From the sequence record PZ402305.1: a DNA stretch of 64,000 nucleotides; one strand, 5' to 3'. The translations under genes and the position numbers were made by a program. How positions within the stretch are numbered: the first letter of the stretch is position 1; each line of letters begins with the position of its first letter. Origin of the DNA: a phage. Positions 23,481 through 62,002 of this stretch are shown piece by piece. Under the pieces are notes generated by a model. The model was not told where the DNA came from and searched no databases. It saw only the letters and a list, made by a program, of their open reading frames with translations.

Positions 23481-24281
23481 TTATTTGTTTAAGTGGTCTT
23501 CGACCATTTTAATGAAACCTTCATTGCTGAAGGCTGTTGCAGCTTTTTCTCGGTAAACAAAAACTCCACGATCTTCATAGAGAAGTGTTTCTTCGTAATT
23601 AACTCCAGGGTTAACTACAACCATTTTTGTTCCGATGTTAAGAGCAGGAAAAAGCTCCCAGTTAAAATTGATAACTTGATTAGAGCAACCCACTACAATC
23701 ACCATATCTTGAGCCGTCAAGCCGTCTAAGATGTGGTACATATCGTTATACAATGGGGCAGTCTCCCCAAAGAACACTACATTGGGCTTCACATACTTGT
23801 AATCATCTACATCGATAGCAGCATAGCCAACATCTTTGATGATTCTATTGTCTACGATCACTTCAGGCAGGAAGCCGTGAACATGTAGAACATCTTCATG
23901 AACAACACCCGCTTGTTCCAGAAGATCATCTACGTTTGTCGTGATGTTGATAACACGATCACAGCCGTACTCTTGGAACCACTCTGCGATCTTGCAATGC
24001 GCAGCGTTAGGAGACACACTATCCATCTCTACGCGACGTTTATTGTAGAAGTCATGAGTTTTACGGTAGAGGTTGTATCCCTCTGCATCTAATCCACCAA
24101 CAGTGCCAGGAACACACTGTTCTTGCTGGTAGCCAGCACGGAAATTGAAAATATCGCACACTTCAGAAAGGTCGTATTCATCCCACAAAGCTTTCCCACT
24201 ATCTGTATCAGTGCGGAAAGTACGTACACCGCTATCGGCGCTTAGACCCGCGCCGCTGATCACTATTAATCGTCTTGGCAT
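23481..24281 (-). CDS. Sir2-family protein (NAD-dependent deacylase / ADP-ribosyltransferase-like), no Zn ribbon
   Basis: GAGLSADSGVRTFR, TTNVDDLLEQAG, HVHG, PNVVFFGE, VVGCS; no CxxC pairs seen. Confidence 0.7.
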   Translation of the reverse strand: MPRRLIVISGAGLSADSGVRTFRTDTDSGKALWDEYDLSEVCDIFNFRAGYQQEQCVPGTVGGLDAEGYNLYRKTHDFYNKRRVEMDSVSPNAAHCKIAEWFQEYGCDRVINITTNVDDLLEQAGVVHEDVLHVHGFLPEVIVDNRIIKDVGYAAIDVDDYKYVKPNVVFFGETAPLYNDMYHILDGLTAQDMVIVVGCSNQVINFNWELFPALNIGTKMVVVNPGVNYEETLLYEDRGVFVYREKAATAFSNEGFIKMVEDHLNK

Positions 24282-24757
24282 TCTTCCTCCTCATAATCAT
24301 CATAATCTTCGTCATCCAAATCGTACACTTCGTCTTGAGAATAACTCACTTCAAAGTAAATATCAAACTCCGCAAACAAACGTAGAATGTTGGACATGCT
24401 GTAATAATTATCGTAGGCAGATTCAGCTTCATAGTAAACATAAAGCAAATGGTTAGCCTTATCATCTTCCAAATATTTCCCGTCTGCATACGCATAGTCT
24501 GCATATGCTTTACCTGCATCTTCCACAAGAGAACGATCAAGCAGAGTAGGAAATGGTTTCTCTTTTTCTTTTAGTTTGCTCACCAACCAGTGTGCAATAT
24601 CATGCCAATCTGCATCCTCTCCGCTGAAGCAGCTTGCGACTTCGCCAAACTTGGCATCTCCTAAGTCTCCGCTAATAGTGATCATGGTTGAACTATTGTA
24701 ACCACAAGTTTCGCAATTTGAACAACTGTTGTGCACATGAATTTCTACTTGAAACAT
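24266..24757 (-). CDS. hypothetical protein with acidic C-terminal tail
   Basis: Internal ATG after GGAGGA; C-terminus DLDDEDYDDYEEEECQDD. Confidence 0.45.
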   Translation of the reverse strand: MFQVEIHVHNSCSNCETCGYNSSTMITISGDLGDAKFGEVASCFSGEDADWHDIAHWLVSKLKEKEKPFPTLLDRSLVEDAGKAYADYAYADGKYLEDDKANHLLYVYYEAESAYDNYYSMSNILRLFAEFDIYFEVSYSQDEVYDLDDEDYDDYEEEECQDD

Positions 24758-24815
24758 ATTTCCTCCCATAAAAGAAAAGCCCCCTGAAGCAGGAGGCTTT
24801 GTTCAGATATCGGCA

Positions 24816-25469
24816 CTATACCAGACTTTGAAGGTATTTGTCAAGGGCTTCTTGATCACCTTGACAAACATAGCAACGGAAGTCTTGAGCCGAAGGTTGT
24901 TTATTTTCATCCCAGTCCCAATAAACATTACCCTTATAACGTGAACCAGGAAACTCAAAAGAGGCTGTATGTGTAATGTATCCTGGGCCACCAGTGAAAT
25001 CACAGAATGAGAATTGGGGGTATGCCGCCTTTACTGCCTCAATAAACCAAGCTTTACGATCTAAAGCTTCATTGATGCTATACGCATGTCTCTCCATTTC
25101 TTCCCACGTTTTCCAGACACTTCTCTCATCAGGAGAAAAGACAAGCCATTCTGGAAGGTACAGAGTGTCATAGTAATCATCATATTCGATCTCGGAGGCG
25201 CACGAAGCTGACTCCTCCAGTTTTGAGTAATCAAAAGCAGAATATACCCACCAACCATCTTCCAGTAAGGCTTTGATAGGGACGAAGCCTTTATCAGCAT
25301 ATTGATCGAATTGTTTGACACGGTGGCTTGTGCAGTCTTCAAACTCACATTCTAAACGATATGCACCTTTTCGACGAGCCTCAAGACCGTGTGTACTGAA
25401 AATAACAACACTTCCTTCACCATCATTACGATCTACTTGATAAGCAACTACTGGTTTTGAATTTGACAT
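24816..25469 (-). CDS. hypothetical protein (217 aa)
   Basis: Track ORF. Confidence 0.45.
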   Translation of the reverse strand: MSNSKPVVAYQVDRNDGEGSVVIFSTHGLEARRKGAYRLECEFEDCTSHRVKQFDQYADKGFVPIKALLEDGWWVYSAFDYSKLEESASCASEIEYDDYYDTLYLPEWLVFSPDERSVWKTWEEMERHAYSINEALDRKAWFIEAVKAAYPQFSFCDFTGGPGYITHTASFEFPGSRYKGNVYWDWDENKQPSAQDFRCYVCQGDQEALDKYLQSLV

Positions 25470-26152
25470 TATTTCTCCTTATCTAGAAGATTGTTAGACA
25501 AAAACACGGCACGAGCAAAACCACGTGCGGTTAGGGATCTAAGTTGTTTTGTTTTTGCACTAGCTCCACCTAAGCTTTTCCAACCCCAGAAGCAGCCTAT
25601 ATGATCTACTGGTTTCTTCACTGGTTGAACAAAACCATTGCCGTGCCAAATACAAGTTTTCTTTGTATACCCATCACGGGTAGGCATTTTAGGATGAAAG
25701 CTTCCTTCCTCTTCAAACAAATACCCACCATATTCATAAGGATCAAAGTAAAAATCGGGTTTACGCCATAGGGTTGAAAGTTTACCTACTGGGTTCTCAA
25801 TCATCCAAGGAACATTATATTTGTTACCCAAAGCTTCCACTACACGAATATTAGCTAAAGCTTCATCTAATTCCTCTGTGCTACGTTCGTGTTTGCTACC
25901 ACTACCTGCTAACATAGTGCAAGGTGGAAATCCAAAAATAATATCGGGTTTAGGTATCCCATGATCTTCAGGGTTAAATGTAGAATCTATCCAGGCATTC
26001 ACATAGGTTATGTTTGGGTGCTCCATCCTAACCTCGTATTTACCGTGATCCCCTTCATCAGCGTTTACACAAAAACACTTGTGACCTGCTTCGGCATAAC
26101 GTAACACCATGATCCCAGATCCGTCAAACATAGACAAAACTGTTTTACTCAT
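25469..26152 (-). CDS. DNA cytosine-5 methyltransferase-like protein (short form)
   Basis: LSMFDGSGI (FxGxG), GFPPC (Pro-Cys), MIENPVG (ENV-like); start moved to ATG after GGAGG. Confidence 0.45.
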   Translation of the reverse strand: MSKTVLSMFDGSGIMVLRYAEAGHKCFCVNADEGDHGKYEVRMEHPNITYVNAWIDSTFNPEDHGIPKPDIIFGFPPCTMLAGSGSKHERSTEELDEALANIRVVEALGNKYNVPWMIENPVGKLSTLWRKPDFYFDPYEYGGYLFEEEGSFHPKMPTRDGYTKKTCIWHGNGFVQPVKKPVDHIGCFWGWKSLGGASAKTKQLRSLTARGFARAVFLSNNLLDKEK

Positions 26153-26540
26153 TACCCCTCCATTCAAGACAAGCCATAACTTTACGCCAATCACTTTCTG
26201 TAAGAAAAATCTCGTTTGCTTTCTTCCACAAATCTAAATCGTAAAGGGTTGGAATACGATATGTTAGTTCACAGAATCTATGCTCTTCTTCTGTAATATA
26301 ACCAAAATGCAGAGCCACATCGTGAAACCAACACCAACCATGCATCTCTCGAACAACATGGTCATGTTGAGACATTATTTTATGCCGTAAACCTAACCAA
26401 CAAGGAACAGATACTTTAGTAGTCTTTAATCTGTGTTCAACAGTATTAGAGTATTCAATAATAGCTGTCAGTTTCAATCGTGCTTTTTCTAAATCCTCAT
26501 GCGTCACTTTGAAATAACTTTCTGAAAGATATCCACACAT
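26145..26540 (-). CDS. hypothetical protein (131 aa)
   Basis: ATG after GAAGGAGG. Confidence 0.45.
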   Translation of the reverse strand: MCGYLSESYFKVTHEDLEKARLKLTAIIEYSNTVEHRLKTTKVSVPCWLGLRHKIMSQHDHVVREMHGWCWFHDVALHFGYITEEEHRFCELTYRIPTLYDLDLWKKANEIFLTESDWRKVMACLEWRGNE

Positions 26541-26541
26541 A

Positions 26542-27483
26542 TTAATAACCTCCTTCAAAAGGCTTTACTACATGTTGATTAGCTTTAAAACGTTCAACAT
26601 AGTCGTTTTCGCCCATGTTTTCATATAGCTTAATAACAACATAAAAGTTTTCCCAAGCATATTCCCTAAACCAACCACTAGTGATGGATGTGCAGACTTT
26701 AGATAAAGCCATTATAAAACTTTGCTTAGGGGTTGGACCTCCGATCTCTTCACCGAAAGGAATTTGTGAACGTTCCAAAGCCAAAACACACGCTTCTTCA
26801 TAAACACCTAACAGCCGCACATGTTTTGGTTGAGCAAAAAACTTTTCTTTGCTGGTCATAACTTCACTTCCATCTTTCATATAAGATTTATATGCTGGAG
26901 CATCCATTAACGCGATTGCTTCATGGATAGAATCATGATCATAAACATACGGAACCTCGTCACCTTTAAAGAACTCTTTACTTTTTACGTTTAAGTTCGG
27001 ATGAGAGTAAGTGTATGTTTCTTTCTCACGCAACTCATAAATACTCTTAAGATTTTCTGGGATCTTTGCGCCCAGTGACCGCATGAAATGAATATCTTTC
27101 ATAGTTTTAAAGAAGTGAGGACTATCCTTTTTAAAACGATGACTCATTTTAAGAAGGTAGAGCACATCTAAAGGAGCAACAACATGTCCAGCGTAAGTTC
27201 GACGAACATCATCAGAATCTTCACAATAACTAATCAAAGCTTCTGTGCTATCTCCTTGAGAAGCAATATCGTATTCCAAATGTGCACCAGCTATCATTTT
27301 GACATGGCCTTTGTTCCCTTTACGTTCTACAAGTTCAACAAACTCGTCTTGAGAGAACATTTTTGATAATTCTTCCCACTCTTGTTCTGTACACAGGTAA
27401 TCTAAATCTACACAAGGGCGATACAAGTCTTTTCCCATGTCCATAGCATGAATTTGTAATGCACGGCTACCAATTAACACCAT
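26542..27483 (-). CDS. hypothetical protein (313 aa), possible nucleotidyltransferase-like N-terminus
   Basis: LIGSRAL...VDLDYL loosely resembles a GS...DxD motif; own promoter TTGACA-N17-TAAACT at about 27514-27542. Confidence 0.4.
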   Translation of the reverse strand: MVLIGSRALQIHAMDMGKDLYRPCVDLDYLCTEQEWEELSKMFSQDEFVELVERKGNKGHVKMIAGAHLEYDIASQGDSTEALISYCEDSDDVRRTYAGHVVAPLDVLYLLKMSHRFKKDSPHFFKTMKDIHFMRSLGAKIPENLKSIYELREKETYTYSHPNLNVKSKEFFKGDEVPYVYDHDSIHEAIALMDAPAYKSYMKDGSEVMTSKEKFFAQPKHVRLLGVYEEACVLALERSQIPFGEEIGGPTPKQSFIMALSKVCTSITSGWFREYAWENFYVVIKLYENMGENDYVERFKANQHVVKPFEGGY

Positions 27484-33535: not shown

Positions 33536-34228
33536 TTAAATAGCGGTTCCTTCGAAATCCGCCACATTTACGAGATTAATATTTTCAGATTTAGAAGTCA
33601 AGTTGTTTTCTGCAACAGATTTTTCTTCAGTATCCGCCTCGTTACCTGCCACGTTACGAGGTTCTTCTTCACCGTAGGGATTACCGAATTTCAAAAGATT
33701 GATCAATTCTTCTTTGGAGAAGTTTTCTAAATCATCGTCTGTTAATTCAATAATCTCGTCTTGTTCTTCAATAAATGTTTCACCACCAGAAAAAGCATCT
33801 CGCTTTTTAGCTACTTCCATAGCCTGTTCTGGTGTTGCCCCTGCATCAAGAGCAGCTAAAGCAAAGTCTGACCCACTCCCTACTGCATAATATTCTTCAT
33901 CAATCGGATATGCACGTGTTGGGTTGTTACCCTCGTGCAGGAAAATACGTCCGTCTGGATGAACAACAAGTGCAATAAACTCTTCATCTTCTTTGTCTGG
34001 ATCAGAGTGAATCATCAAACCAGGGACAGCATCACGTGCTGCTTCGCACTGTAGATTTTGTTCAAACCATTGAAAGAAAGAAAGCACGGAGGTCAGACGA
34101 CCAGCACCACCTACAAGGTAATCTCCAATTTTTCGGACCTTTTTGAAATTAATAGAATCTACACGTCCACCAAAAGTTACCTTACCGTCACTCAAAATCT
34201 TATTTTTGGTTGCAATAATTGTCGTCAC
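33536..34228 (-). CDS. hslV: HslV-like (proteasome beta-type Ntn) peptidase with acidic C-terminal extension
   Basis: N-terminal MTTIIATKN...GG..D (Thr2 nucleophile), YAVGSGSDFALAAL; about 75-residue acidic tail. Confidence 0.55.
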   Translation of the reverse strand: MTTIIATKNKILSDGKVTFGGRVDSINFKKVRKIGDYLVGGAGRLTSVLSFFQWFEQNLQCEAARDAVPGLMIHSDPDKEDEEFIALVVHPDGRIFLHEGNNPTRAYPIDEEYYAVGSGSDFALAALDAGATPEQAMEVAKKRDAFSGGETFIEEQDEIIELTDDDLENFSKEELINLLKFGNPYGEEEPRNVAGNEADTEEKSVAENNLTSKSENINLVNVADFEGTAI

Positions 34229-36222: not shown

Positions 36223-36483
36223 TTACTCCGCAATTTGAGCCATGAGATCACGCAGTTCGGTAAAACCGCCTACGTATGTTACCTCCCCGTTCACTTCGGA
36301 CAGAATTTGTGGAAATGTGCGTGGAGGAACTCCGGTAAGATCAACAACTGTTTTAGTCATTGATTCTAAATCATAGTCTTGATCAAGACTTAAATATTCA
36401 AACTGTTTATTGCGCATGGTTAATAGTTGTTTTGACATTTCACAAAATTGACAGTTAGGTTTACCAAAAATTACAAATTCCAT
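36223..36483 (-). CDS. glutaredoxin/thioredoxin-like protein
   Basis: 86 aa with CQFC redox motif; directly precedes rml and nrd genes. Confidence 0.6.
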   Translation of the reverse strand: MEFVIFGKPNCQFCEMSKQLLTMRNKQFEYLSLDQDYDLESMTKTVVDLTGVPPRTFPQILSEVNGEVTYVGGFTELRDLMAQIAE

Positions 36484-37325
36484 TACCTCTCCTTATTAAG
36501 TAATACTGCTAAAGACTGTTCAATACCTTTATTTAAATCTGATTTTGTAAGATAGTGACTGGTTACTAGTTGTGACTTCACCGGACGTGCTGCTGGAGCA
36601 TTATAGGTTGAAGCTGATACCGCCGATATCTTAACAGGTTCTGGCATCTGTGTCAAGATCTTTTCCGCAAACTCCGCCCAAGAAATAAGATGGCTTCCTG
36701 CAAAATGGTAAGTCTTAACAGACCTTGACCAACCTGTTTTTAATACTTCAAAAATAGCTTCTGCTAAATCTGGAGCATATGTTGGACAAGAGAACTGATC
36801 AGCAACAATAATAAAATCACGTTGTCCATCATTATAGCGAGACAACATGGTTTTTAGAAAGTTATTTCCAAATTCGCTATATACCGAGGCTGTTCGAATA
36901 ATATATGCATTTGGGTTAACTCCTCGCACCATTTTTTCACCAAGTTCTTTCGTATACCCATAATTGTTTATTGGGTTAGGTGTAGTATCTTCAAAAATAG
37001 GATGAGAATAATTAAAAATATAGTCTGTAGAAATATGCACAAAATCAATTTTAAGTTTGCTGCACACTGCCGCAATATTTGCAGGTCCATACGCATTAAC
37101 AGCCAAAGCAGTAGCAAAATCATGTTCTGCTTTATCTACAGCCGTATAAGCGGCGCAATTAATAACACCATCTACATAATCTTCAATAATAGCGTTTCGC
37201 ACAGCTTCAAAATTTGTAATATCTACACGTTCTTTAGGATAAATTAAAGATACATTTGAAGGAGCCACTTTACGTAAAGCTTGTCCCAGTTGTCCATTAC
37301 CGCCCAATACCAGATATGTTAGCAT
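36483..37325 (-). CDS. rmlD: dTDP-4-dehydrorhamnose reductase
   Basis: N-terminal VLGGNGQLG Rossmann motif; last gene of the rml set. Confidence 0.75.
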   Translation of the reverse strand: MLTYLVLGGNGQLGQALRKVAPSNVSLIYPKERVDITNFEAVRNAIIEDYVDGVINCAAYTAVDKAEHDFATALAVNAYGPANIAAVCSKLKIDFVHISTDYIFNYSHPIFEDTTPNPINNYGYTKELGEKMVRGVNPNAYIIRTASVYSEFGNNFLKTMLSRYNDGQRDFIIVADQFSCPTYAPDLAEAIFEVLKTGWSRSVKTYHFAGSHLISWAEFAEKILTQMPEPVKISAVSASTYNAPAARPVKSQLVTSHYLTKSDLNKGIEQSLAVLLNKER

Positions 37326-37885
37326 ACACCCTCGCTACGTAACTGTTGAAAAGATTTAGCCATTGCATCTTTTGTTGATAGAATAGGTTTAAAACCTTCG
37401 TCAAAAATCATATCGAAGCCCCAATCGATCCCTATATCAGGATCATCCCAACGTAAACTTTGTTCACTAGAAGGGTCGTATGGAGTTGTGCATTTGTATT
37501 CAAAGATAGCATCCATACTCAAAACTATAAAACCATGAGCCAAACCAGGCGGAAGCCAAAACTGCGTATGGTGTCGTGCACGAAGAACAACACCGTCCCA
37601 AGCACCGTAAGTTGGACTATCTTTACGTAAATCTACAGCGAAATCCAATACTTCCCCACTTACACAACGAACTAGCTTACCTTGCGGGTTATTTGTTTGA
37701 AAGTGCATTCCTCGCAAAACACCGAAGTTTGATTTAGACATGTTATCTTGAACGAAAGTTTGTCTACCAATAATATCTTCGTATTTTTGTTCATTATATG
37801 TTTCTAGAAAGAAACCACGATCATCTTTATAAACGTCTGGTTTGATAATTACCGCACCTTCAATTTTTGTTTTTTCTACTTTCAT
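37319..37885 (-). CDS. rmlC: dTDP-4-dehydrorhamnose 3,5-epimerase
   Basis: [14 protein letters not shown], cupin-like; ATGA overlap with rmlA stop. Confidence 0.8.
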
Positions 37886-38760
37886 TTTCTCTCCGCTAAT
37901 TTGAGTAGGTATTGCCCGTACTCTGTTTTCTTCAGTGAGTTTCCATGATACACCAAAGTCTCTAAAGAAATCCACCCTTTTTTGAAAGCAATTTCTTCCA
38001 GGCACGCAATCTTCAATCCTTGACAGTTCTCAATAGTCTGCACGAATTGACCAGCTTCCATCAGACTGGCGTGTGTTCCTGTGTCAAGCCAAGTAAATCC
38101 TCGTCCGAGAACTTCCACTTGTAACTTCCTGTCTTCTAGGTAGCTGCGATTGATATCAGTGATCTCCAGTTCTCCACGCGCGGAAGGGGTTACTTCTAAT
38201 GCACGTTGAATAACAGAGTTATCATAGAAATACAAACCTGTGACAGCATAATCTGATTTAGGATTTTCAGGTTTCTCTTCAATAGAAATAGCTTGACGAT
38301 TACTCCCAAATTCAACCACACCGAATCGTTCAGGATCTTTCACCAAATACCCGAAAATACAAGCTCCGCCCCAAACATCTACCATCTCACTGGCGTTAAT
38401 CAGTAGTTTACCAAAGCTTTGTCCGAAGAATAGGTTGTCACCTAAAATAAGAGCAACAGAGTCTTCTCCGATAAAATCTTTACCTATGATGAAAGCTTCC
38501 GCAAGACCTCGTGGCTCGGATTGGATTGCGTAAGTGAGTTTTATCCCAAACATAGATCCATCTCCGAGAAGATACTCAAAGTCTTCCTGATCGCCTGGTG
38601 TGGTGATTATTAAAATATCCTTAATGTCAGCCAACATCAATACCGATAAAGGGTAGTAGATCATGGGTTTGTCATACACAGGGAGTAATTGCTTGCTCAC
38701 ACTGCGTGTTACTGGATGAAGGCGGGTTCCACTTCCTCCCGCCAAAATAATACCTTTCAT
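37882..38760 (-). CDS. rmlA: glucose-1-phosphate thymidylyltransferase
   Basis: [18 protein letters not shown]...[16 protein letters not shown]. Confidence 0.9.
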
Positions 38761-38768
38761 AACCCTCC

Positions 38769-39761
38769 TTAAATTTTCTCACTCCACCATTGAGGGTTGT
38801 TTAAGTACCATTCAATCGTTGAGTAGAGATCTTGTTCAAATGTAGAGTTTGCACTCCAACCCAGTTCAGACTCTATTTTAGAAGGATTGATTTCATAACG
38901 CAAGTCATGTCCTTTACGATCTTCAACAAAAGTTATCAAGTTGGAAGAAGGGTAGGTTCCTGCCTCTGGATGTACAGCATCCATGTAGTCACAAACCATA
39001 TAGATGATCTCCATATTGGTTTTGGGATTACGTGTTCCAACATTATACGTTTGACCTGGTTCTCCACCTGTTGCCACTTGAAGAATAGCTCGCGCATGAT
39101 CCTCAACAAAAAGCCAGTCTCGCACCTGATCGCCTTTACCATACACCGGAATCTCTTTATTCGTCAAGATACTTGTGATGATTTTTGGGATCAGCTTTTC
39201 TGGATGTTGATAAGGCCCAAAGTTATTGGAGCAGTTGGTTATCACAACAGGCAAATCGTAGGTACGGTGCCAAGCTTTCACAAGATGGTCAGATGCTGCC
39301 TTAGACGCGCTGTACGGGCTTGAAGGGGCATAAGCTGTCTCTTCAGTAAAGGGAACGCCAGAGTCTGCCATATCGCCGTACACTTCGTCTGTGGAGACGT
39401 GTACGAACATCTTCAGTTTATTTTTTGGGAGGAGCCTTGCAGCTTCCAATAAATTGTATGTACCAATAATATTGGAGTCGATGAAAACTCGTGGATTCTT
39501 GATAGAATTATCCACATGACTTTCTGCCGCTAAGTGAATGATGAAGTCAGGATTGCACTCTACTACTAAACTTTTGACCTGGGTTTCGTTTGCCAAATCT
39601 GTTATGCTTAGTTTAACGTGAGTGATATCGCCTACATTCTCAATGTCTGCTGCATAGCCCATCTTATCAACGACAAAAACTTCGTTATTGGGATCTTGAC
39701 AAAGAGAGCGCACCACGGCACTCCCAATAAAACCAAGACCACCTGTTACCAGATAGCGCAT
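38769..39761 (-). CDS. rmlB: dTDP-glucose 4,6-dehydratase
   Basis: [15 protein letters not shown] and SDR YxxxK-type core; 330 aa. Confidence 0.9.
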
Positions 39762-39770
39762 CAGTTCTCC

Positions 39771-40097
39771 TTACCAAACATGTTGAGAAATAATAGTTTC
39801 CGTTTTAATGTTATATTTTTCAAGTAGCTTTGCATAGGCTTCTTTTGCATTCTCATTCAATTGCTCAAGATCTACAGCTATGCTTCCTTCTCCGCCTTCT
39901 AAATCAAGGCCATATATGCAATAAGACTCATCCGCATCGTAGAAAGGAGAGATGCGGCTTAAGTCAAGACCTTCTTGTAAGAACCAGTTAAAATCTCCGT
40001 CAAATTCTTCTTCAATTCTAGGATCTTCTCCTACAGCCTCTTCCCACTTATTAAAAGGTGCACCCTGTAACATACGCCATTCGATATCAATACCCAT
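39771..40097 (-). CDS. hypothetical acidic protein (108 aa)
   Basis: Track ORF. Confidence 0.45.
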   Translation of the reverse strand: MGIDIEWRMLQGAPFNKWEEAVGEDPRIEEEFDGDFNWFLQEGLDLSRISPFYDADESYCIYGLDLEGGEGSIAVDLEQLNENAKEAYAKLLEKYNIKTETIISQHVW

Positions 40098-40601
40098 TTT
40101 TCATCTCCTCCTCTTCTTGAGCAGCTTTAATAATTGCTTCATAAATATCGTAAGCAATGCCTCCACAACATCTAGCTTCGAAAGCTATTGCTTCTGCAAT
40201 GTGATCTGTTAATTCTCGTGGAATGCGAACATACTCTTTTTCACTCTCCATCTTCTACCTCCAACCCTTCTTTTTCAAAGATTACTACTCGTCCTTCACC
40301 ATGACAATTCAGGCAAGGAAATGTTACCATAATTTCCACTTCCATCTGTCCAGTCCCACCGCACACAGGACAAAAAATAAGTTTTTCAGCCATTATTCCT
40401 CCTTAATTATTTCAAACTTGGCAACACCATTTACAATAATATGACCACAAGACATAACTCCTAGCCAAGGATCGCCGTTTTTCTTCGGGCGTTTACCGAA
40501 TACATCACAAAAACCATTCTTCATTTCGGAGGCTTCATAAGAAGCCTCTTTGTCAAAAACGTCTTTGAATGTGTCGATTATACCAACACATCTCAAAATC
40601 A

Positions 40602-41687
40602 TTAGAAGTCAAGCTCCTCATCATCAGAGAGATCTTTGTTAGCTGAATTCAATTTGTAATTAGTTAACTGAATCTCTTGGGCTGCTGACTGAATCAAATC
40701 AGGATTCAACCATTTTTCCATCCAAGCTAAAGGACTATGTTTAGGTGCTTTAAACTTGGCTTTCATTTTCAATCGACGATAAATAGGAGCAGCATTGAAA
40801 TAAACCCACTGTTTAGACAATTCGGCGTTAAGACCTACAATAAAACGACCTTCACTAAACAGGTAGTCACACCACTGTTCCTCTTGTTCAACAACAGTGT
40901 CGAGGATCAAAGTCAACTCTTCAATATTATCTTCGTAAATTTTACGCCAAATTGGGTCATGCATCAATGCATCAATTACAGCATAGTCCATCTTAACATG
41001 CAAGATTTCATCTAGCATAATTTTCTGGATCAGTTTACAAGCCCCAACAAACAGTTGTTGTTCTGCCATAGCAAAAGTAGCAGAGAAGGAAGATATAAAC
41101 TGAATACCTTCTAATCCAATCAGGGCTACCATCCCTTTAAGAATCAGCAAGCGAAGTTCATCGTTAGCTTCAATCAATCCTAGAGCATACTTATGACCAG
41201 CTTCTTCCAACTGACCCATGATATCAGCAATGATACCCATACGATTGAAAATTTTATCATTAATCATAATCTGATTGATGACTTCAATTGGATCTGGAGT
41301 ACATTGGCGGATTATTTCAGAATACGTTAACGCATGGAGAACTTCCATTTCACTCTGCTTCATCATCATAGCACAGGCTTCATTGTTACTCAAGAATGGA
41401 GAGAACAAAGTGATGATTGATTTTGCAAGAGAATCATTTTCCCATTGGAACGATAAGTTTTTAATCATAACATCATAGTTGTTTTTAGAACAAGCTACGA
41501 AATCTTTACGTGTCTGATCCAGATTAACTTCGTTTTCATCCCAATCTTGTGCTTTTTGAAGTTTGTAGAGTTTGTGCATTTCTGGATAAGTTACGTTAAC
41601 AGAATCAAAGATCCCTAATTGCTCCCCCAAAAATACTGGATATTTTCCTGTTTTGTAAACTTCATTGTGTAAATTAATTGCTGCCAT
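40602..41687 (-). CDS. nrdB: ribonucleotide reductase small subunit (class Ia beta)
   Basis: 361 aa; di-iron ligand-type E..H motifs; C-terminal ...DDEELDF tail. Confidence 0.85.
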   Translation of the reverse strand: MAAINLHNEVYKTGKYPVFLGEQLGIFDSVNVTYPEMHKLYKLQKAQDWDENEVNLDQTRKDFVACSKNNYDVMIKNLSFQWENDSLAKSIITLFSPFLSNNEACAMMMKQSEMEVLHALTYSEIIRQCTPDPIEVINQIMINDKIFNRMGIIADIMGQLEEAGHKYALGLIEANDELRLLILKGMVALIGLEGIQFISSFSATFAMAEQQLFVGACKLIQKIMLDEILHVKMDYAVIDALMHDPIWRKIYEDNIEELTLILDTVVEQEEQWCDYLFSEGRFIVGLNAELSKQWVYFNAAPIYRRLKMKAKFKAPKHSPLAWMEKWLNPDLIQSAAQEIQLTNYKLNSANKDLSDDEELDF

Positions 41688-41702
41688 TTAAAATTCTCCT
41701 CA

Positions 41703-41725
41703 ATAAAAAGGGGCCGAAGCCCCTA
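41703..41725 (-). terminator. terminator-like UUCG hairpin between nrdA and nrdB
   Basis: GGGGC-UUCG-GCCCC followed by TTTTTATT that overlaps the nrdB RBS region. Confidence 0.5.
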
Positions 41726-41731
41726 GTTTCA

Positions 41732-43972
41732 TCACATCTTGCAAGCTTCACAACCACCATCAGAATCTTCTTGTGCTAAAGAATCTGCTGATTTTGTTCT
41801 ACTGTTAAGGTAATACAATGACTTACCACCCAGTCTAGCAAAGTTCAAAATAAATTTCATCTCTTCTTTAACTGATAAACGTCCCCCTACCAATTTAGAA
41901 TAATCTAACCAAGAATCACAAGAAATTCCTTGGTCCGTAAACTTGGTAAAGATACCATACATTTCTGCAAGATCTTTAGCCGGAGTATCCCATGCAGACT
42001 GGTAAAACATTTTCAGTTTTTCGTAGTCTGGAACAATAAATAATACACTACCTTTCTGACTTTGTTTATACATAATAGTATCACGAACAGGATACAGAGA
42101 GTTAGTAGTATTGCTTACCAAACTGCTGGACTCATTAGGTGCAATAGCAGCCAAGACACTGTTACGGATACCACCTTGTTCAATGATTTCAGCACGTAAG
42201 CCTTCCCAATCCATTTTAAGATCAAAATTACCGATACTATCTACTGTTTTAGCATAAGTGTCAATTGGTAGCCAACCTTGAGGCCATTTGGTCTTATCGA
42301 TCCATTCCGCATTACCTTTTTCCTTAGCCAGACGCAGAGAGGCTTTTGCCAACCAAAAGTAATGACGTTCTGCAAGTTCATGCATTAATTTTTTAGCATA
42401 AGCATCTGAATAATTTACAAAATTACTTGCCAAATAATGCGCTAAGTTTGTAATGCCTACACCAATAGATCTACGTGCTTTAGCAGTTATTTCGTTATGT
42501 TTAAATGGATAATCCATTGTTTCAATAACGTTGTCAATTGTCAATACAGTGTAGTATGCAACATCCTCATATTCTTCAGGTAAGACACGACCAGCAACAA
42601 TAGAAGATAAGAAGCATAAAGCCAATTCTTGATCTTCTGTGTTCTCACCAGTAAAGAGATCCGGCATACTGTGGAAAGCTTTAGTTGGTAAGAAGATCTC
42701 TTGACACAGGTTTGATTGATACACCGTATCCAGGAAAGGTGTATGGTTGTTAACGTTGTCAGCAAAGAACATGTAAATACGTCCTGTTTCTGCACGTTGA
42801 ACAATAATCTCTGTCAGAAGATCACGAGCCTTAACAAATTTTTTCTTAATGCGACGACGGCTTACTTTGTCATAAACTGCATCAAACTCTTCTTCACTTT
42901 TATACAAAGCTTCATAAAGTTCTGGAGCATCATCACAACTAACTAACATCCAATCTTCGTTTTTTGCTGCTCGACGCAAGAACGAACGGTTAACAACAAT
43001 AGAATAATCCAGTTTGTCTACTCGTTTATCTATAGGTGTTGTTGGATTCTTCAGTCGAATCAGATCGTCGAAGTCTGGTTCAAGTATGGTAAAGGTAACT
43101 GTAGCACTACCTCCACGGCTTGCTTGCTTCGAAGCTCCAACACTATCTTCCATCCATTTCAGATATGGAAGAAGACCACCATGAATAATACGATTATTCT
43201 TAACACCTTGACCTGTGGCGCGAGTTTGAAGATTAACACCAATACCTGCGTTATTCAACGTATACTCATGAGCTAAGTAATTAGCAATGGCTAAAGACTC
43301 TGCCGTATCGTCTGCACGGAACAAACAACAAGACGCACTTCCTTTGATTGGAGTTCGTAGAGTTGTCAGATACGGCGATGGCAGATTAATCTTAAGATCG
43401 CTAACATAAGTATAAAGTTTTTTAATATCTTCTATACGGCGTTCTTTTGGTTGGATCTCCATAACCTTCATTGCGATACCAATAAAAAGAAACTGTGGAG
43501 ACTCATGCACCACATCGTTTACTGCATCTCGAATAAGATATTTATCTACCATCTGACGTAAAACAGAATAACCATAAGTTAGATTTTTATTATGCTTTAC
43601 AATCTTACCGATTTCTTTGATCTCTTCATCAGTATAATCCATTTTAGCCCAATGTCCACGTTCTACCATATCATGATAAAAGGTATTCAGTGAAGGGATA
43701 CTGTGGTATCCCCCATGAGCCTGTTTGTAAATCATACCCAGAAGAAGTCTTCCTGCCATATCACTGTAAGCTTGTGTTTTCTTGTCAATACACGCTGCAA
43801 TCATTGCTTTATGCAGATCACGTGTAGACACACCGTCATAACACCGCTTCACAGCTTCTAATTCAATTTCAGACCAGTTTAGTTTACCTGCTGCAAATTC
43901 AGACCACTTGCGAAGTTTTTCTGGATTAAACTCCTCTGTCTTACCGTTAGATTTAGTTACAAAACGAATCAA
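41732..43972 (-). CDS. nrdA: ribonucleotide reductase large subunit (class Ia alpha)
   Basis: 746 aa; N-terminal ATP-cone, SNLCQEI active-site motif, C-terminal Cys pair. Confidence 0.9.
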   Translation of the reverse strand: MIRFVTKSNGKTEEFNPEKLRKWSEFAAGKLNWSEIELEAVKRCYDGVSTRDLHKAMIAACIDKKTQAYSDMAGRLLLGMIYKQAHGGYHSIPSLNTFYHDMVERGHWAKMDYTDEEIKEIGKIVKHNKNLTYGYSVLRQMVDKYLIRDAVNDVVHESPQFLFIGIAMKVMEIQPKERRIEDIKKLYTYVSDLKINLPSPYLTTLRTPIKGSASCCLFRADDTAESLAIANYLAHEYTLNNAGIGVNLQTRATGQGVKNNRIIHGGLLPYLKWMEDSVGASKQASRGGSATVTFTILEPDFDDLIRLKNPTTPIDKRVDKLDYSIVVNRSFLRRAAKNEDWMLVSCDDAPELYEALYKSEEEFDAVYDKVSRRRIKKKFVKARDLLTEIIVQRAETGRIYMFFADNVNNHTPFLDTVYQSNLCQEIFLPTKAFHSMPDLFTGENTEDQELALCFLSSIVAGRVLPEEYEDVAYYTVLTIDNVIETMDYPFKHNEITAKARRSIGVGITNLAHYLASNFVNYSDAYAKKLMHELAERHYFWLAKASLRLAKEKGNAEWIDKTKWPQGWLPIDTYAKTVDSIGNFDLKMDWEGLRAEIIEQGGIRNSVLAAIAPNESSSLVSNTTNSLYPVRDTIMYKQSQKGSVLFIVPDYEKLKMFYQSAWDTPAKDLAEMYGIFTKFTDQGISCDSWLDYSKLVGGRLSVKEEMKFILNFARLGGKSLYYLNSRTKSADSLAQEDSDGGCEACKM

Positions 43973-44748: not shown

Positions 44749-45747
44749 TCACCATTTAGTATGATTTGTTAAAAGTTGACGATGTTGAATCCAGCCTTTG
44801 AAATTACCAGACCAAAACTTACCATTACGATCTACATGGGTAATACCTGGTTCCCAAGAGTTAAAATCCCAAGGAGCATTGATAAACAAATCTTCAAAAC
44901 AGTTCTCTCCGTATTGTTCGCATGTTTCTTGAATTGGAGTGGCTTGATGTTCAAACGGAGAAGCATGAACCTTGCGCCCAGTCAGCAAGCGACCATAGAT
45001 ATCTAAAGCTTTATCTTTAGTTGCATTTAAACGACGATAGCTAACCTGTGCACAACACGAAGCTGAAATAGCTTTGGCTTCTTCCAAAGTAAGCACAACA
45101 ACTTCTCCAGATTCATCTTGAACGTAGTATCCACCAAAAACAAAATGATCGTCACCTTCTGTGCCAATAGTATCATAGAAATGGTCTACATAAGGTGTGT
45201 GCCATTGCCCTGGTTTCAGCACTTCTGGTGTAGATCCTTCATACTCTTTGTGCATCTCTTTAGCCAAAGCTTCGATAGTAGGATCGGCTTCTTTGTCATC
45301 ACGTAGCCACCAGAAATTTTCATATTCTGTTGCTGTCAGAACTGTTTTAATTCGTTGGAAAGGTTCCAGAAGACGGTTTGCAACTTGTTTGTGGTACCCT
45401 GCCAAAGAGAATTCTTCTGCAAAACGTGCTGCACTAAGCGCGGCAAGATCCCACCACTCTTGAGCAGTATAACCTGCATCAATAAGAGCGTCATGATCAA
45501 CACCTTTATCCTGCATACCAGGTTGGTTAGCCCCAAAACGATAAGGACGAGCAGGTTGATTTCGCACCATTTCAATCAGTGTTTTAACAGGTATAGCACG
45601 GCTAGAAGCAGCATTACGACTAAACAGGCGGTGAGTCATCAATTCTGAATGAATAATACGTGGATATTCTAGTTCAAAAGTTACAATCTCTTTTCCGTCT
45701 TCAGTGATGGAATGCGCAATAATACTAGCCGAAATCTGTTTTGTCAT
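44749..45747 (-). CDS. ThyX-like protein (flavin-dependent thymidylate synthase family, variant motif)
   Basis: THRLFSRNAASSR fits RHR-x7-S-x-R with R to T; HASPFEH motif near C-terminus; 332 aa is longer than typical ThyX. Confidence 0.5.
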   Translation of the reverse strand: MTKQISASIIAHSITEDGKEIVTFELEYPRIIHSELMTHRLFSRNAASSRAIPVKTLIEMVRNQPARPYRFGANQPGMQDKGVDHDALIDAGYTAQEWWDLAALSAARFAEEFSLAGYHKQVANRLLEPFQRIKTVLTATEYENFWWLRDDKEADPTIEALAKEMHKEYEGSTPEVLKPGQWHTPYVDHFYDTIGTEGDDHFVFGGYYVQDESGEVVVLTLEEAKAISASCCAQVSYRRLNATKDKALDIYGRLLTGRKVHASPFEHQATPIQETCEQYGENCFEDLFINAPWDFNSWEPGITHVDRNGKFWSGNFKGWIQHRQLLTNHTKW

Positions 45748-45756: not shown

Positions 45757-46365
45757 TTAGTTTTTAAAATTGTTCAAAGTGTTAAAAACATCCAAACATG
45801 TTAGCCACTGATCTTCTAAACCTGTGATCACAACATTTGGTTTTTTCTTTAGTTCTTCTAGATGGTTATCTTTATAAGGCGTATTAAAATATATTTTAAC
45901 CACTTCATCTGGAAAATATAGTAGGTTATCAGCCCTGTCATCTATTGCTATATCACAAGGCAATAAGTATTTTTCTTTCGTAGCAAAAAAGCCGTTACCA
46001 GATCCTTTGCTAAAATCAATCGTATCTAACGTTCTTAAAACATGCTTATGTTTAGAACTTAAGTGACCACCTTTTGTCACACTTGCGATCAAAAGATTGC
46101 TACCTTTCCTTGAAACATACTTTAAGAAATCTGGCATACCTGGAACAAAACCCATTGTATCATAGAGATGAGGATTATCCAGAAATCCGTAAGGATCTAT
46201 ATTAAACTCCTCCCTGAAACCAGGAAAGTAGTTGGTAAGATCATAGTCTGCATTTTTTGTGAATGTGTCTATCTTAACACCAAGTCCACTAATCTTATTC
46301 AACCATTCTAACCAAGCAACATCTAATGGAGCCACAACTAAATCCCAATCACATACTATCTGCAT
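45757..46365 (-). CDS. HAD-superfamily phosphatase, possible 5'-deoxynucleotidase
   Basis: CDWDLVV (DxD), IASVTKG, DDRADN resemble HAD motifs I, II and IV. Confidence 0.4.
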   Translation of the reverse strand: MQIVCDWDLVVAPLDVAWLEWLNKISGLGVKIDTFTKNADYDLTNYFPGFREEFNIDPYGFLDNPHLYDTMGFVPGMPDFLKYVSRKGSNLLIASVTKGGHLSSKHKHVLRTLDTIDFSKGSGNGFFATKEKYLLPCDIAIDDRADNLLYFPDEVVKIYFNTPYKDNHLEELKKKPNVVITGLEDQWLTCLDVFNTLNNFKN

Positions 46366-51233: not shown

Positions 51234-51959
51234 TTACTTGTTAATAATACCTGCAATATTAGGTTTGACAAAGGTCGATGGTTTCATGATCTTACCTTTA
51301 TCATCAAAGAACACATACACTTTCTGTTTTTCATTATAAACAGCATGAACACCAGTGTATGCCCCTTCTGGACGATTGGCATTTCGTTCTTCAATTGCAG
51401 CGCATTCTTGTGCAATGGCTGAATCGATATCCGAAGTTTTCCAAGTTTTCAGCAACTGTTGTTTAGTTGGATACTTGGAATCATTACTTTTCAATACCTC
51501 TTTAATAACTTTCTTTTCTGGATATTTTGAACGGATTAGAGTGTCACGAGACATACGCATAATACCAGCAGCCATTAGTGCCATTTGAACTGGCTCTGTA
51601 AATGTTTGTTCCAAAGCATCAAAATCAGTATACACAGTTGGAGTAAAAACATCGCCTACAGCATAGTCCAAGAAATTCATCGTATGTTCTTCACCAAAGA
51701 ACATGTAAGTAAGATAACTGGATACTACAAAAATATCCGCTGCTGCATCCAAGAGTTCTACATGATCGTTTACTTTCGCGGCTGTTTCATACTCTTTAAG
51801 CTCTTCACGAACGAACCCGATTTGGGACATAAATAGCTCTTGAGTGAATTCAGGTTGTTCACCACCTCGTGCTTTGGCATTCCAATCAATTACGTGCTTT
51901 GCTGCATTTTTGAAAAATTCAGTATCGAATTTAATATCTTTAAAAAAATTCTCGATCAT
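51234..51959 (-). CDS. MazG-like nucleoside triphosphate pyrophosphohydrolase (putative)
   Basis: REELKEYE...(12 aa)...ELLD fits the ExxE-x12-ExxD signature. Confidence 0.45.
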   Translation of the reverse strand: MIENFFKDIKFDTEFFKNAAKHVIDWNAKARGGEQPEFTQELFMSQIGFVREELKEYETAAKVNDHVELLDAAADIFVVSSYLTYMFFGEEHTMNFLDYAVGDVFTPTVYTDFDALEQTFTEPVQMALMAAGIMRMSRDTLIRSKYPEKKVIKEVLKSNDSKYPTKQQLLKTWKTSDIDSAIAQECAAIEERNANRPEGAYTGVHAVYNEKQKVYVFFDDKGKIMKPSTFVKPNIAGIINK

Positions 51960-60574: not shown

Positions 60575-60646
60575 TGGCCCTGTAGCTCAATGGGAGAGCT
60601 GTCGGCTCATAACCGATAGGTAGCTGGATCGAAACCAGCCAGGGCC
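60575..60646 (+). tRNA. tRNA with CAT anticodon, tRNA-Ile2 (lysidine)-like
   Basis: Acceptor GGCCCTG/CAGGGCC, loop CTCATAA, encoded CCA; resembles bacterial tRNA-Ile2. Confidence 0.7.
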
Positions 60647-60651
60647 ACCAA

Positions 60652-60723
60652 CGTCTTTATGGTGTAATGGATAGCACAGGAGTCTTCTAAACTCTTAGTC
60701 AAGGTTCGATTCCTTGTAAAGAC
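60652..60723 (+). tRNA. tRNA-Arg (TCT)
   Basis: Acceptor GTCTTTA/TAAAGAC, loop CTTCTAA, T-loop TTCGATT, CCA. Confidence 0.7.
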
Positions 60724-60775
60724 ACCAGAACATTTTAACATGAATTAGCTCAAGTGATTTGAACCCACTACTGAT

Positions 60776-60896
60776 CATGGTGGCAGAGAATGAGGCAAGT
60801 ATGTCAGACATTATAAACAAAGGCCACGGTTATATTAGAAGACATAAATGCTCGAAGAGCACCGTTCGTGGAGAACGGGGGTTGGTGGAGTCACCA
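60776..60896 (+). ncRNA. second candidate structured RNA (about 120 nt)
   Basis: ATGGTGGC at about 60776 pairs with GTCACCAT at about 60889; track ORF 60759..60950 here is probably spurious. Confidence 0.3.
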
Positions 60897-60961
60897 TTCA
60901 TGGTAAAATGTTTTAAAAAACTATTGACAACAAACCTTATTTTATGTTAGATTATAAGTAT

Positions 60962-61049
60962 GGAAGGGCAAATCGACGTGGCGACGAAAACGGTCTTGAA
61001 AACCGCCGAGCTTGAAAGAGCCTTGGGAGTTCGACTCTCCCTCCTTCCG
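60962..61049 (+). tRNA. tRNA-Ser (TGA), type II
   Basis: Acceptor GGAAGGG/TCCTTCC, loop CTTGAAA, long variable arm, T-arm GGGAG-TTCGACT-CTCCC, G73, CCA. Confidence 0.7.
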
Positions 61050-61056
61050 CCAGATT

Positions 61057-61139
61057 GGTAGATTGGTGAAATGGTAGCCACGACAGTTTGCTAAACTGTA
61101 GTCGGAAACGGCGTGTAGGTTCGAGTCCTACATCTACCG
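61057..61139 (+). tRNA. tRNA-Ser (GCT), type II
   Basis: Acceptor GGTAGAT/ATCTACC, loop TTGCTAA, long variable arm, G73, CCA. Confidence 0.75.
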
Positions 61140-61273
61140 CCAAGTTCTTTTTAATATAGCTTACTTTAATAGAGTAAACTTTCGGCAGATGGCCCCCCAC
61201 CATCTTACCGATAACTCATAGTTAGTGGTGTGAACACTGGCTATCTTAAAAAGAATTTAAATATTAGTATTTA

Positions 61274-61358
61274 GGTGAGTTAATTCCGTAGGGGTAGCGG
61301 GGCAGACTGTAAATCTGTTATCATTGCGATTCGGGTGGTTCGACTCCATCACTCACCA
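61274..61358 (+). tRNA. tRNA-Tyr (GTA), type II
   Basis: GGTGAGT...GCAGACTGTAAATCTGT...ACTCACCACCA; close to the bacterial tRNA-Tyr pattern. Confidence 0.8.
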
Positions 61359-61367
61359 CCAAATTAA

Positions 61368-61450
61368 GATGAGTTGGCTGAATGGTTTAAGCGGCGGACT
61401 GTTAATCCGTGTTCGAAAGAACGATATAGGTTCAAATCCTATACTCATCG
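61368..61450 (+). tRNA. type II (Ser-like, G73) tRNA whose canonical fold gives anticodon GTT (Asn)
   Basis: Acceptor GATGAGT/ACTCATC, 3-bp D-stem, loop CTGTTAA between GCGGA/TCCGT, GNRA-capped variable arm. Confidence 0.45.
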
Positions 61451-61532
61451 CCAGAATTATGGACTTGTAGAGTTAAGGTAAACCCCCAGTCGCCAAGAGG
61501 CTTCTGGAATTGCAGGTATCGAATCCTGCCGA

Positions 61533-61604
61533 GTCCCAGCTTTGCTCCTATAGTATAATGGCTATTACAACGGTTTTGTAATCCGTGGATCTCTGTTCGA
61601 TTCA
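61533..61604 (+). tRNA. tRNA-Thr (TGT)
   Basis: Acceptor GCTCCTA/TGGGAGC, loop TTTGTAA, T-arm CTCTG-TTCGATT-CAGAG, CCA. Confidence 0.7.
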
Positions 61605-61931
61605 GAGTGGGAGCACCAACACAACATTAAGGGCACTGTGATTGATCGTCGTATCCTGTGCACAAGGTCTGTTCGAAAGACAGTGTTCTTAGTATTGTGT
61701 TGATCACAAAAAGAGTCACCTGAAACTTGACCGGAGTAGGGTTGGATGGGGTAAAAGAAGAAGCGGCTCTCCCATCGACAGCAACGAAGAATAATATTTG
61801 ACTTTGGTTTTGTATTATTTTAAGTTAGCTTACCGAACGTAGGGCTAGTCACCCAAAGGGATACTCGTCACTGTCCCACTCAATAAAACTATTGACAACC
61901 AATAGTAAAGTGTAGTATAGTAAAGATGTAG

Positions 61932-62002
61932 GGCGTTCTTGGTGTAGCGGTAGCATTCCGTCCTTCCAAGTCGGCGGCACGAGTTCGATCCTCGTAGAAC
62001 GC
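61932..62002 (+). tRNA. tRNA-Gly (TCC)
   Basis: Acceptor GCGTTCT/AGAACGC, loop CTTCCAA, T-arm ACGAG-TTCGATC-CTCGT; D-arm weak. Confidence 0.55.

Follow-up and report, generated by a model that had tools for sequence, protein, structure and literature searches.

A dTDP-L-rhamnose gene cluster in a phAPEC8-like coliphage: an apparent rmlCD core, an accessory rmlBA cassette and candidate phage-encoded consumers

Why would a tailed coliphage keep, among its genes for nucleotide metabolism, a complete set of enzymes for making a nucleotide sugar, and what would it do with the product? The question is raised by the rml locus of sequence record PZ402305.1, of which a stretch of 64,000 nucleotides (nt), hereafter the window, was analysed. 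Four genes on its minus strand, in the coding-strand order rmlB-rmlA-rmlC-rmlD, are predicted to encode the pathway to deoxythymidine diphosphate (dTDP)-L-rhamnose. Our preferred reading, which we hold to be moderately probable, is that they form a functional pathway feeding glycosyltransferases encoded by the phage itself.

The cluster as such is not a new finding. Its four genes are already annotated as dTDP-rhamnose enzymes in more than 100 GenBank records, and an almost identical observation was made by Olsen et al. 2020, who called the presence of rml genes in the DNA-metabolism region 'peculiar' and proposed a role in the glycosylation of hydroxymethylated bases (PMC7552041). The cluster was also remarked on by Maffei et al. 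2021 in the BASEL study (PMC8594841). In the literature that we searched, we found no experimental study of rml gene function in these phages. What is added here is the division of the locus into core and accessory genes, its explanation through complementation by the host, and the recognition of a co-conserved cluster of four glycosyltransferase genes as the probable consumer of the pathway.

Identity, conservation and origin of the rml genes

All four translated products score above the curated NCBIfam equivalog cut-offs of their families (365.1 bits for TIGR01181, 360.65 for TIGR01207, 155.75 for TIGR01221 and 224.05 for TIGR01214; scores in Table 1), and the Pfam assignments are concordant. 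None of the four open reading frames (ORFs) is interrupted by an internal stop codon, and a Shine-Dalgarno sequence is found before each of them. The genes are closely packed: rmlB and rmlA are separated by 8 nt, rmlC shares 7 nt with rmlD, and rmlD shares 1 nt with the glutaredoxin gene (grx) that follows. A mechanical ORF list had placed the start of rmlC at a GTG at position 38005, inside rmlA, with an overlap of 124 nt; we corrected it to the ATG at 37885, which forms an ATGA overlap with the rmlA stop codon and has GGAGAG upstream.

The residues expected of active enzymes are present in each protein. RmlB contains YSASK, an instance of YxxxK, together with the GxxGxxG Rossmann motif and the catalytic T-D-E residues. 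RmlA aligns over residues 1-291 with the solved RmlA/RffH structures 4HO0, 1MC3, 1H5R and 1IIM, and in this alignment both the GGSGTRL motif and the two glutamates of the allosteric site (EE, 255/256) are kept. A loss of feedback control in RmlA was also considered and shows no sign, given these allosteric glutamates and a Phe146 that is common to the aligned solved RmlA/RffH proteins. Aligned to Salmonella RmlC (1DZR), the phage RmlC retains the motifs LRGMHFQ, GKLVRC, FEYK and TKDA, which we take to be the carriers of the catalytic residues in the cupin active site (His, Lys, Tyr and Asp). In RmlD, finally, GGNGQLG, STDY and YGYTK align with the solved structures 3SC6, 1VL0 and 1KBZ. The first-pass annotation of the window had described the four genes as present, intact and contiguous, and their coordinates, equivalog scores and catalytic motifs bear it out in full.

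The window is collinear with phage EF1-1 over about 60 kb. Its 3.9-kb rml region is 99.6% identical to that of Escherichia phage SKA64 and 99.3% identical to that of phAPEC8, and matches 127 phage records, nearly all of them Phapecoctavirus or Justusliebigvirus (Stephanstirmvirinae). By these similarities, the window belongs to a Phapecoctavirus, i.e. a phAPEC8-like E. coli phage of the Stephanstirmvirinae. The RmlB protein is 100% identical to that of SKA64 and 62.5% identical to that of phi92, whose rml locus is syntenic with the window at protein identities of 54-72%. Two side observations concern the relatives themselves. Phage PsgM04F is a mosaic, with an RmlA 98.6% identical to the window protein and an RmlC only 66% identical, the latter value resembling the 62-65% of phi92-like and Citrobacter Tr1 alleles. 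Records labelled as Campylobacter, Pseudomonas or Acinetobacter phages (MG065650.1, OR584014.1, OP562383.1 and others) are 98-99% identical to these coliphages, and their host labels look doubtful.

Measured against the sister phage EF1-1, the ratio of nonsynonymous to synonymous substitution rates (dN/dS) is 0.09 for rmlB, 0.13 for rmlA, 0.017 for rmlC and 0.04 for rmlD. Compared with phi92 and with the Klebsiella phages 05F01 and KP13-26, the ORFs remain intact despite saturated synonymous sites (proportion of synonymous differences, pS, 0.64-0.86) and protein identities of 40-72%. Both phi92 and 05F01 share with the window the gene order nrdA-nrdB-(small ORFs)-rmlB-A-C-D-grx-(small ORF)-lysozyme-phoH, and synteny of the rml locus spans three lineages of the Stephanstirmvirinae. 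As judged from these comparisons, the rml genes are under purifying selection and actively conserved.

They do not appear to come from the host. Between E. coli rfb DNA and the phage rml genes the identity is only about 64%, and the gene order differs, being rfbB-D-A-C in E. coli and B-A-C-D in the phage. The best bacterial RmlA in a collection of bacterial and archaeal genomes that covers 185,579 species, with a single genome per species, comes from a Marinomonas and is 69% identical; further matches form a flat series of 60-69% over many phyla, none of them nearer than the phi92 allele (72%). Capture from an E. coli host is ruled out by the low DNA identity, the differing gene order and the lack of a close bacterial donor. 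The same facts bear on the rival view that the cluster is a functionless passenger, recently taken from a host O-antigen locus and now decaying. That view could draw on the dispensability of rmlB and rmlA in nature and on their atypical GC content at third codon positions (GC3) in this genus, both described below. It is as good as refuted by the evidence from selection and synteny: the four genes are intact, with dN/dS between 0.02 and 0.13, and keep their place in genera that share no more than 54-72% protein identity. We accordingly give it hardly any credence, and the caveat in the first-pass annotation that the genes might prove to be recent inactive acquisitions can be dropped.

Core and accessory parts of the locus

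The four genes are not equally constant. Among records named 'Escherichia phage', tblastn detects RmlC in 106, RmlB in 89 and RmlA in 88. ESCO37, a viable Phapecoctavirus (PMC10269720), lacks the segment that corresponds to window positions 37895-39765 and holds rmlB and rmlA; its blastn blocks end at 37894 and resume at 39766. The ESCO37 junction, TAAGGAGA/GAAAATG with the slash marking the join, sits between the GGAGA repeats that act as Shine-Dalgarno sequences of rmlB and rmlC, and the ribosome-binding site of rmlC is kept. Phage anhysbys has the same layout, with rmlBA missing and rmlCD retained, and Klebsiella phage KP13-26 carries only rmlC and rmlD, in the same position. In the phi92-like phage Eryne, residues 1-310 of RmlB are fused in frame to residues 159-289 of RmlA; the nucleotide-binding half of RmlA is gone, while rmlC and rmlD are intact. 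Hence rmlC is kept in all four of these phages, and rmlD is kept wherever rmlC is. From this distribution, rmlC and rmlD emerge as the stable core of the locus and rmlB and rmlA as accessory genes. The first-pass annotation had implied that the complete pathway is needed. This finds no support, as viable natural phages devoid of rmlBA retain rmlC, rmlD and the four glycosyltransferase genes described below.

The two halves of the locus also differ in composition. In the window, GC3 is 0.41 in rmlB and 0.39 in rmlA versus 0.26 in rmlC, 0.22 in rmlD and 0.28-0.34 in the flanks. Because this contrast is absent in phi92 and 05F01, it suggests that the rmlBA cassette was exchanged more recently in Phapecoctavirus.

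A survey of the potential hosts by blastn showed a corresponding asymmetry. Of 5426 complete E. coli genomes, 5423 contained DNA resembling the phage rmlB/A region. The E. coli rfbD query matched 2386 of the same 5426 (44%), a figure that depends on the sensitivity of blastn and to that extent weakens the explanation that we offer. RmlA and RffH have been shown to be redundant in E. coli (PMC12773781).

We now propose a scheme for the use of the locus. RmlA would combine deoxythymidine triphosphate (dTTP) with glucose-1-phosphate into dTDP-glucose, which RmlB would dehydrate to dTDP-4-keto-6-deoxyglucose; RmlC would then epimerise this intermediate at C3 and C5, and RmlD would reduce it at C4 to dTDP-L-rhamnose. 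The product of the first two steps should already be made by every enterobacterial host, through RffH/RffG or, as is often the case in addition, RfbA/RfbB. Of these, RffH/RffG would serve the synthesis of the common antigen, and RmlC and RmlD would be expected only in strains whose O-antigen needs them. With over half of E. coli strains probably devoid of the last two enzymes, rmlCD would be the part indispensable for the phage, and rmlBA an accessory cassette that only raises flux. In short, rmlCD would be the conserved core because many hosts lack just those two steps: to have dTDP-L-rhamnose in any host, the phage would have to bring rmlCD, and rmlBA would merely increase the supply. The donor sugar would finally be consumed by four phage glycosyltransferases encoded beside the primase/helicase gene.

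Partner glycosyltransferases and candidate acceptors

The first-pass annotation had recognised no glycosyltransferase in the window and recommended looking for one in the rest of the genome. Both points proved sound. A tblastn search of the window with the four glycosyltransferases of EF1-1 gave no match stronger than E = 1.2. The EF1-1 counterpart of the window is found at about 3.4-64.1 kb, and the glycosyltransferase genes of that phage are at 112.3-115.4 kb. In EF1-1, phAPEC8, anhysbys and other near-identical relatives, four adjacent genes (GT1-GT4) are placed between the endolysin and primase/helicase genes, about 77 kb from rml.

All four are labelled glycosyltransferase in PHROGs, where they fall into families 7162 (twice), 2456 and 14179. 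GT1 (314 amino acids, aa) and GT2 (315 aa) are paralogues with 41% identity. The AlphaFold model of GT1 (predicted local distance difference test score, pLDDT, 92.6) has a GT-B fold and appears closest to the GT4-type enzymes PglA, BshA, MshA, GtfC/Gtf3, SdgB and PimA. GT3 (227 aa, pLDDT 89.5) is predicted to adopt a GT-A fold and carries an invariant DDD motif; the solved structures most similar to it in fold are those of STIV A197, vaccinia H3, collagen glycosyltransferases, TarP and GalNAc-T12, with template modelling (TM) scores of only 0.4-0.5. GT4 (187 aa) represents a small family annotated at the PHROG level only. Searches of the PDB with the sequences of GT1, GT3 and GT4 returned nothing meaningful.

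The distribution of these genes follows that of the pathway. For GT1 as for GT3, the number of 'Escherichia phage' records is 107, compared with 106 for RmlC, and both are present in Klebsiella relatives as well. The rmlCD-only phage anhysbys keeps all four, and Eryne retains homologues of GT1 and GT3. In a distant metagenomic phage contig (SRR24146891_1208, positions 2667-3737), a divergent gene resembling a nucleoside diphosphate (NDP)-hexose 4,6-dehydratase, with 171 bits on TIGR01181 and so under the cut-off, adjoins GT3 and GT1 homologues (44% identity for GT3) and a primase/helicase gene. This co-distribution and the contig neighbourhood support, but do not prove, that a deoxyhexose pathway feeds GT1-GT4. 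Together with the intact genes and the purifying selection, the presence of the glycosyltransferase cluster in essentially the same phages lends indirect support to the first-pass suggestion that the locus supplies a sugar donor. Its three acceptors, namely DNA, virion proteins and host surface polysaccharide, had been listed as equals, and here our ranking departs from it.

Several points weigh against our preferred reading. RmlD clears its equivalog cut-off only marginally (237.6 versus 224.05 bits), and its sequence does not decide the stereochemistry at C4, so that the product may be L-rhamnose or 6-deoxy-L-talose. For this genome, the glycosyltransferase cluster lies outside the window and is deduced from phAPEC8 and other near-identical relatives. 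Co-occurrence of pathway and glycosyltransferases within one subfamily is equally expected from shared ancestry alone, and neither sequence nor fold assigns a dTDP-rhamnose donor to any of GT1-GT4. Finally, the literature searched contains no report of enzyme activity, sugar analysis or a glycoconjugate for these phages.

As for the acceptor, we mildly favour a protein, be it of the virion or not; it heads our ranking as a possible rather than a probable answer, followed by a lipid-linked glycan of the host envelope, to which we give a lesser chance, and by DNA, which seems rather improbable, the remainder being left to other acceptors. A tblastn search with GT3 matches 327 mycobacteriophage records, including Cluster F1, at E values of about 1e-7 to 1e-8, and GT3 matches PHROG 1579 with E = 1e-12. 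Among the Cluster F relatives, Che8 and Rita bear capsid glycans, at least in the account that PMC11256854 gives in citing Freeman et al. 2023. Structural neighbours of the GT1 and GT3 models include the protein O-glycosyltransferases GtfC/Gtf3, SdgB and GalNAc-T as well as collagen glycosyltransferases, and giant viruses offer a precedent for capsids bearing rhamnose made by viral enzymes. Three observations count on the other side. The similarity of GT3 to the mycobacteriophage proteins is remote, at 25-27% over about 130 residues, and covers the nucleotide-binding half of the GT-A domain only; the fold matches of the models, at TM-scores of only 0.4-0.6, carry little information on the acceptor; and no Ser/Thr-rich terminal extensions are evident on the portal, scaffold, decoration, capsid, sheath or tube proteins. 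We know of no glycosylated virion protein in the Stephanstirmvirinae. Only tentatively, then, do we picture a self-sufficient rhamnosylation system of the Stephanstirmvirinae, in which rmlCD as the core, rmlBA as a booster that is optional and the four glycosyltransferases would build a deoxyhexose glycan on a phage protein, most plausibly a component of the virion.

The glycosylation of DNA, which is the explanation of Olsen et al. 2020 (PMC7552041), would place a dTDP-sugar on a hydroxylated base to evade nucleases, perhaps only at motifs defined by a methyltransferase, and several points speak for it. Both the rml and the glycosyltransferase genes lie in modules of DNA metabolism and replication, the latter beside the primase/helicase and DNA polymerase genes and also so in distant contigs, and the phage encodes several DNA methyltransferases. 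GT3 has a weak Pfam match to TAGT (19.4 bits, E = 1e-3, under the cut-off of 27.5) and a match to PHROG 842, the beta-glucosyl-HMC-alpha-glucosyltransferase family (E = 1.4e-5), and viral proteins with TAGT domains are found among its lower-ranked fold matches. There is moreover the precedent of RB69 and DLP3, which combine sugar-nucleotide synthesis genes with several DNA glycosyltransferases (PMC13326640). However, neither the whole-genome annotation of EF1-1 nor a Pfam scan of 27 window ORFs, which left many small ORFs unscanned, revealed a ThyA-homologue hydroxylase or hydroxymethylase or a TET/JBP dioxygenase. GT1 is GT4-like, and the 50 fold matches listed include neither AGT nor BGT of T4. 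Pfam searches around the DNA methyltransferase genes and within the nucleotide-metabolism block returned only Sir2, DUF7275/DUF7277, NT5C, MazG-like and weak ThyX matches. The last of these is the sole thymidylate-synthase-like gene found and as such bears on DNA modification: its divergent, unusually long ThyX-type product of 332 aa reaches only 33 bits on Pfam Thy1, in a match to the C-terminal two thirds of that profile, and resembles no solved structure at E < 0.01. A stretch of it reading THRLFSRNAASSR resembles, by eye and unaligned, what we take to be the RHR...S signature of ThyX. Vequintavirinae and their relatives, including phi92-like phages, were in addition found, their sugar-related machinery notwithstanding, 'exceptionally susceptible' to restriction-modification in the BASEL study (PMC8594841). 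Because the relatives are restriction-sensitive and no hydroxy-base synthase was found, genome-wide glycosylation of DNA is disfavoured, and of the three acceptors that the first-pass annotation had offered, DNA comes out as the least likely.

Two further explanations look to the host. The phage could remodel the envelope by building a rhamnose oligosaccharide on an undecaprenyl-linked or lipopolysaccharide acceptor, thereby masking receptors or tying up the lipid carrier. L-Rhamnose is a typical sugar of O-antigens and lipopolysaccharides, and masking would exclude superinfecting phages and protect the progeny from debris. The GT1 and GT3 models count PglA, PimA, TarP and TarM, whose substrates are lipid-linked or wall polymers, among their structural neighbours, and these phages bind surface glycans of the host through many tail spikes (PMC8594841, PMC11990801). 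Such a scheme would nevertheless depend entirely on host machinery, since the phage annotation shows no initiating phosphoglycosyltransferase, flippase, polymerase or ligase; a single lytic cycle leaves little scope for turnover of the surface, and an exclusion phenotype is unreported. Envelope conversion of this type is, besides, known mainly from temperate phages. We regard this explanation as unlikely. Alternatively, RmlC and RmlD could drain dTDP-4-keto-6-deoxyglucose from the synthesis of dTDP-4-acetamido-4,6-dideoxygalactose (dTDP-Fuc4NAc), a precursor of the enterobacterial common antigen (ECA) and O-antigen, or the pathway could adjust the pools of dTDP-sugars and dTTP, the glycosyltransferases being unrelated. 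The two enzymes do act at a branch point common to ECA synthesis, and the rml genes sit among genes of nucleotide metabolism. Perturbing this node strongly affects nucleotide pools, O-antigen and division in E. coli (PMC12773781). Yet rmlA and rmlB would raise the precursor and consume dTTP needed for replication, a poor fit with drainage, and the shared phage distribution of the pathway and the glycosyltransferase cluster would be left unexplained. Starvation of ECA is kept only as a minor rival because the receptor first ascribed to ECA was later reassigned to the NGR glycan (PMC11990801), and metabolic diversion as a whole strikes us as very improbable.

If a phage-encoded pathway does feed GT1-GT4, the conserved module would comprise six to eight genes, i.e. 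rmlCD with or without rmlBA, plus the four glycosyltransferases. The phAPEC8-like and phi92-like phages that carry it are common, have a broad host range and have repeatedly been proposed as therapeutics against avian-pathogenic, uropathogenic and Shiga-toxin-producing E. coli. With a glycan on their virion proteins, they would provide the first case of a coliphage coated in a virus-encoded glycan based on dTDP-rhamnose, and the stability, immune recognition and host range of phages already in therapy cocktails might change; antibody recognition and pharmacokinetics would be affected. A module altering DNA or the host surface would instead bear on defence evasion and superinfection. As an annotation finding, the rml cluster is ordinary and already published. 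The function of the module is a tractable question, and the rmlCD core provides an experimental handle on it.

Neighbouring genes and known systems

The first-pass annotation had set the cluster between a glutaredoxin gene and nrdB/nrdA. These flanks were found as described, except that nrdB is not in direct contact with the cluster: small ORFs intervene at 39771-40602. The grx gene adjoins rmlD also in phi92, 05F01, KP13-26 and Eryne. On the other side, the conserved 108-aa ORF next to the cluster gave no match in Pfam and NCBIfam scans. It adjoins rmlB in the window and rmlC in ESCO37, anhysbys and KP13-26, and in phi92 one small ORF lies between. The gap of 44 nt between nrdA and nrdB contains a strong terminator-like hairpin; an HNH endonuclease gene separates the two genes in EF1-1 and phi92, and a small ORF does so in KP13-26. 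Other features of the window, including a run of minus-strand genes at 23481-27483, to which a 137-aa ORF also belongs, the block around rml and an array of transfer RNA (tRNA) genes, are given in Table 1.

Table 1. Position of the rml genes and other features in the window, with the matches that identify them.
Feature	Coordinates	Strand	Description
rmlB	38769-39761	minus	dTDP-glucose 4,6-dehydratase, 330 aa; NCBIfam TIGR01181, 430.2 bits
rmlA	37882-38760	minus	glucose-1-phosphate thymidylyltransferase, 292 aa; NCBIfam TIGR01207, 464.5 bits
rmlC	37319-37885	minus	dTDP-4-dehydrorhamnose 3,5-epimerase, 188 aa; NCBIfam TIGR01221, 224.2 bits
rmlD	36483-37325	minus	dTDP-4-dehydrorhamnose reductase, 280 aa; NCBIfam TIGR01214, 237.6 bits
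grx	36223-36483	minus	glutaredoxin; Pfam Glutaredoxin, 38 bits; start overlaps rmlD stop by 1 nt
108-aa ORF	39771-40097	minus	directly upstream of the rml genes; PHROG 15453; conserved
nrdB	40602-41687	minus	class Ia ribonucleotide reductase; NCBIfam match
nrdA/nrdB gap	41688-41731		44 nt
terminator-like hairpin	41724-41709	minus	GC hairpin and T-run, strong
nrdA	41732-43972	minus	class Ia ribonucleotide reductase; NCBIfam match
thyX	44749-45747	minus	divergent ThyX type, 332 aa
Sir2-family protein	23481-24281	minus	
DNA methyltransferase	25469-26194	minus	PHROG 757
DUF7277+DUF7275 protein	26542-27483	minus	313 aa
HslV/proteasome-like peptidase	33536-34228	minus	
NT5C-type deoxyribonucleotidase	45757-46365	minus	
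MazG-like nucleotide pyrophosphohydrolase	51234-51959	minus	
tRNA array	60576-62499	plus	10 genes: Met, Arg, Ser, Asn, Thr, Gly, Gln, Pro, Ile, Met

Among known systems, the rml clusters of phAPEC8 and phi92 occupy the same locus and show no essential difference from that of the window, which represents the full four-gene form where ESCO37 and anhysbys have rmlCD only. The bacterial RmlABCD pathway is matched by all four phage enzymes at the equivalog level, with motifs intact and the allosteric-site glutamates of RmlA kept. The phage cluster departs from it in gene order (B-A-C-D versus B-D-A-C in E. coli), in an RmlA no more than 69% identical to that of any bacterium, and in its placement between ribonucleotide reductase and glutaredoxin genes instead of a polysaccharide locus, with no glycosyltransferase, flippase or polymerase gene adjacent.

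The phages with arabinosyl-5-hydroxycytosine (RB69, DLP3) or glucosyl-hydroxymethylcytosine (T4) in their DNA are likewise virulent myoviruses with several glycosyltransferases, and RB69 and DLP3 bring their own sugar-nucleotide genes. They differ in using a ThyA homologue to make the hydroxylated pyrimidine nucleotide and in having restriction-resistant DNA, whereas here no such enzyme was found and the relatives are restriction-sensitive. Cluster F mycobacteriophages such as Che8 and Rita share the possession of glycosyltransferase operons, and GT3 shows remote homology to the N-terminal GT-A domain of their proteins, e.g. Maravista gp99; on the side of differences, the mycobacteriophage records viewed show no sugar-nucleotide pathway beside the glycosyltransferases.

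Chloroviruses and giant viruses, the subject of two reviews (PMC5408694, PMC9614988), encode donor-sugar synthesis genes together with glycosyltransferases that work independently of the host, in the glycosylation of capsids or fibrils. A combination of rhamnose synthesis genes and glycosyltransferases is also what we propose for the Stephanstirmvirinae, and giant-virus glycosyltransferases are found among the fold neighbours of GT3. Chloroviruses and giant viruses reach rhamnose by a route based on uridine or guanosine diphosphate, in eukaryotic hosts; here it would be the bacterial dTDP route, carried by a tailed phage.

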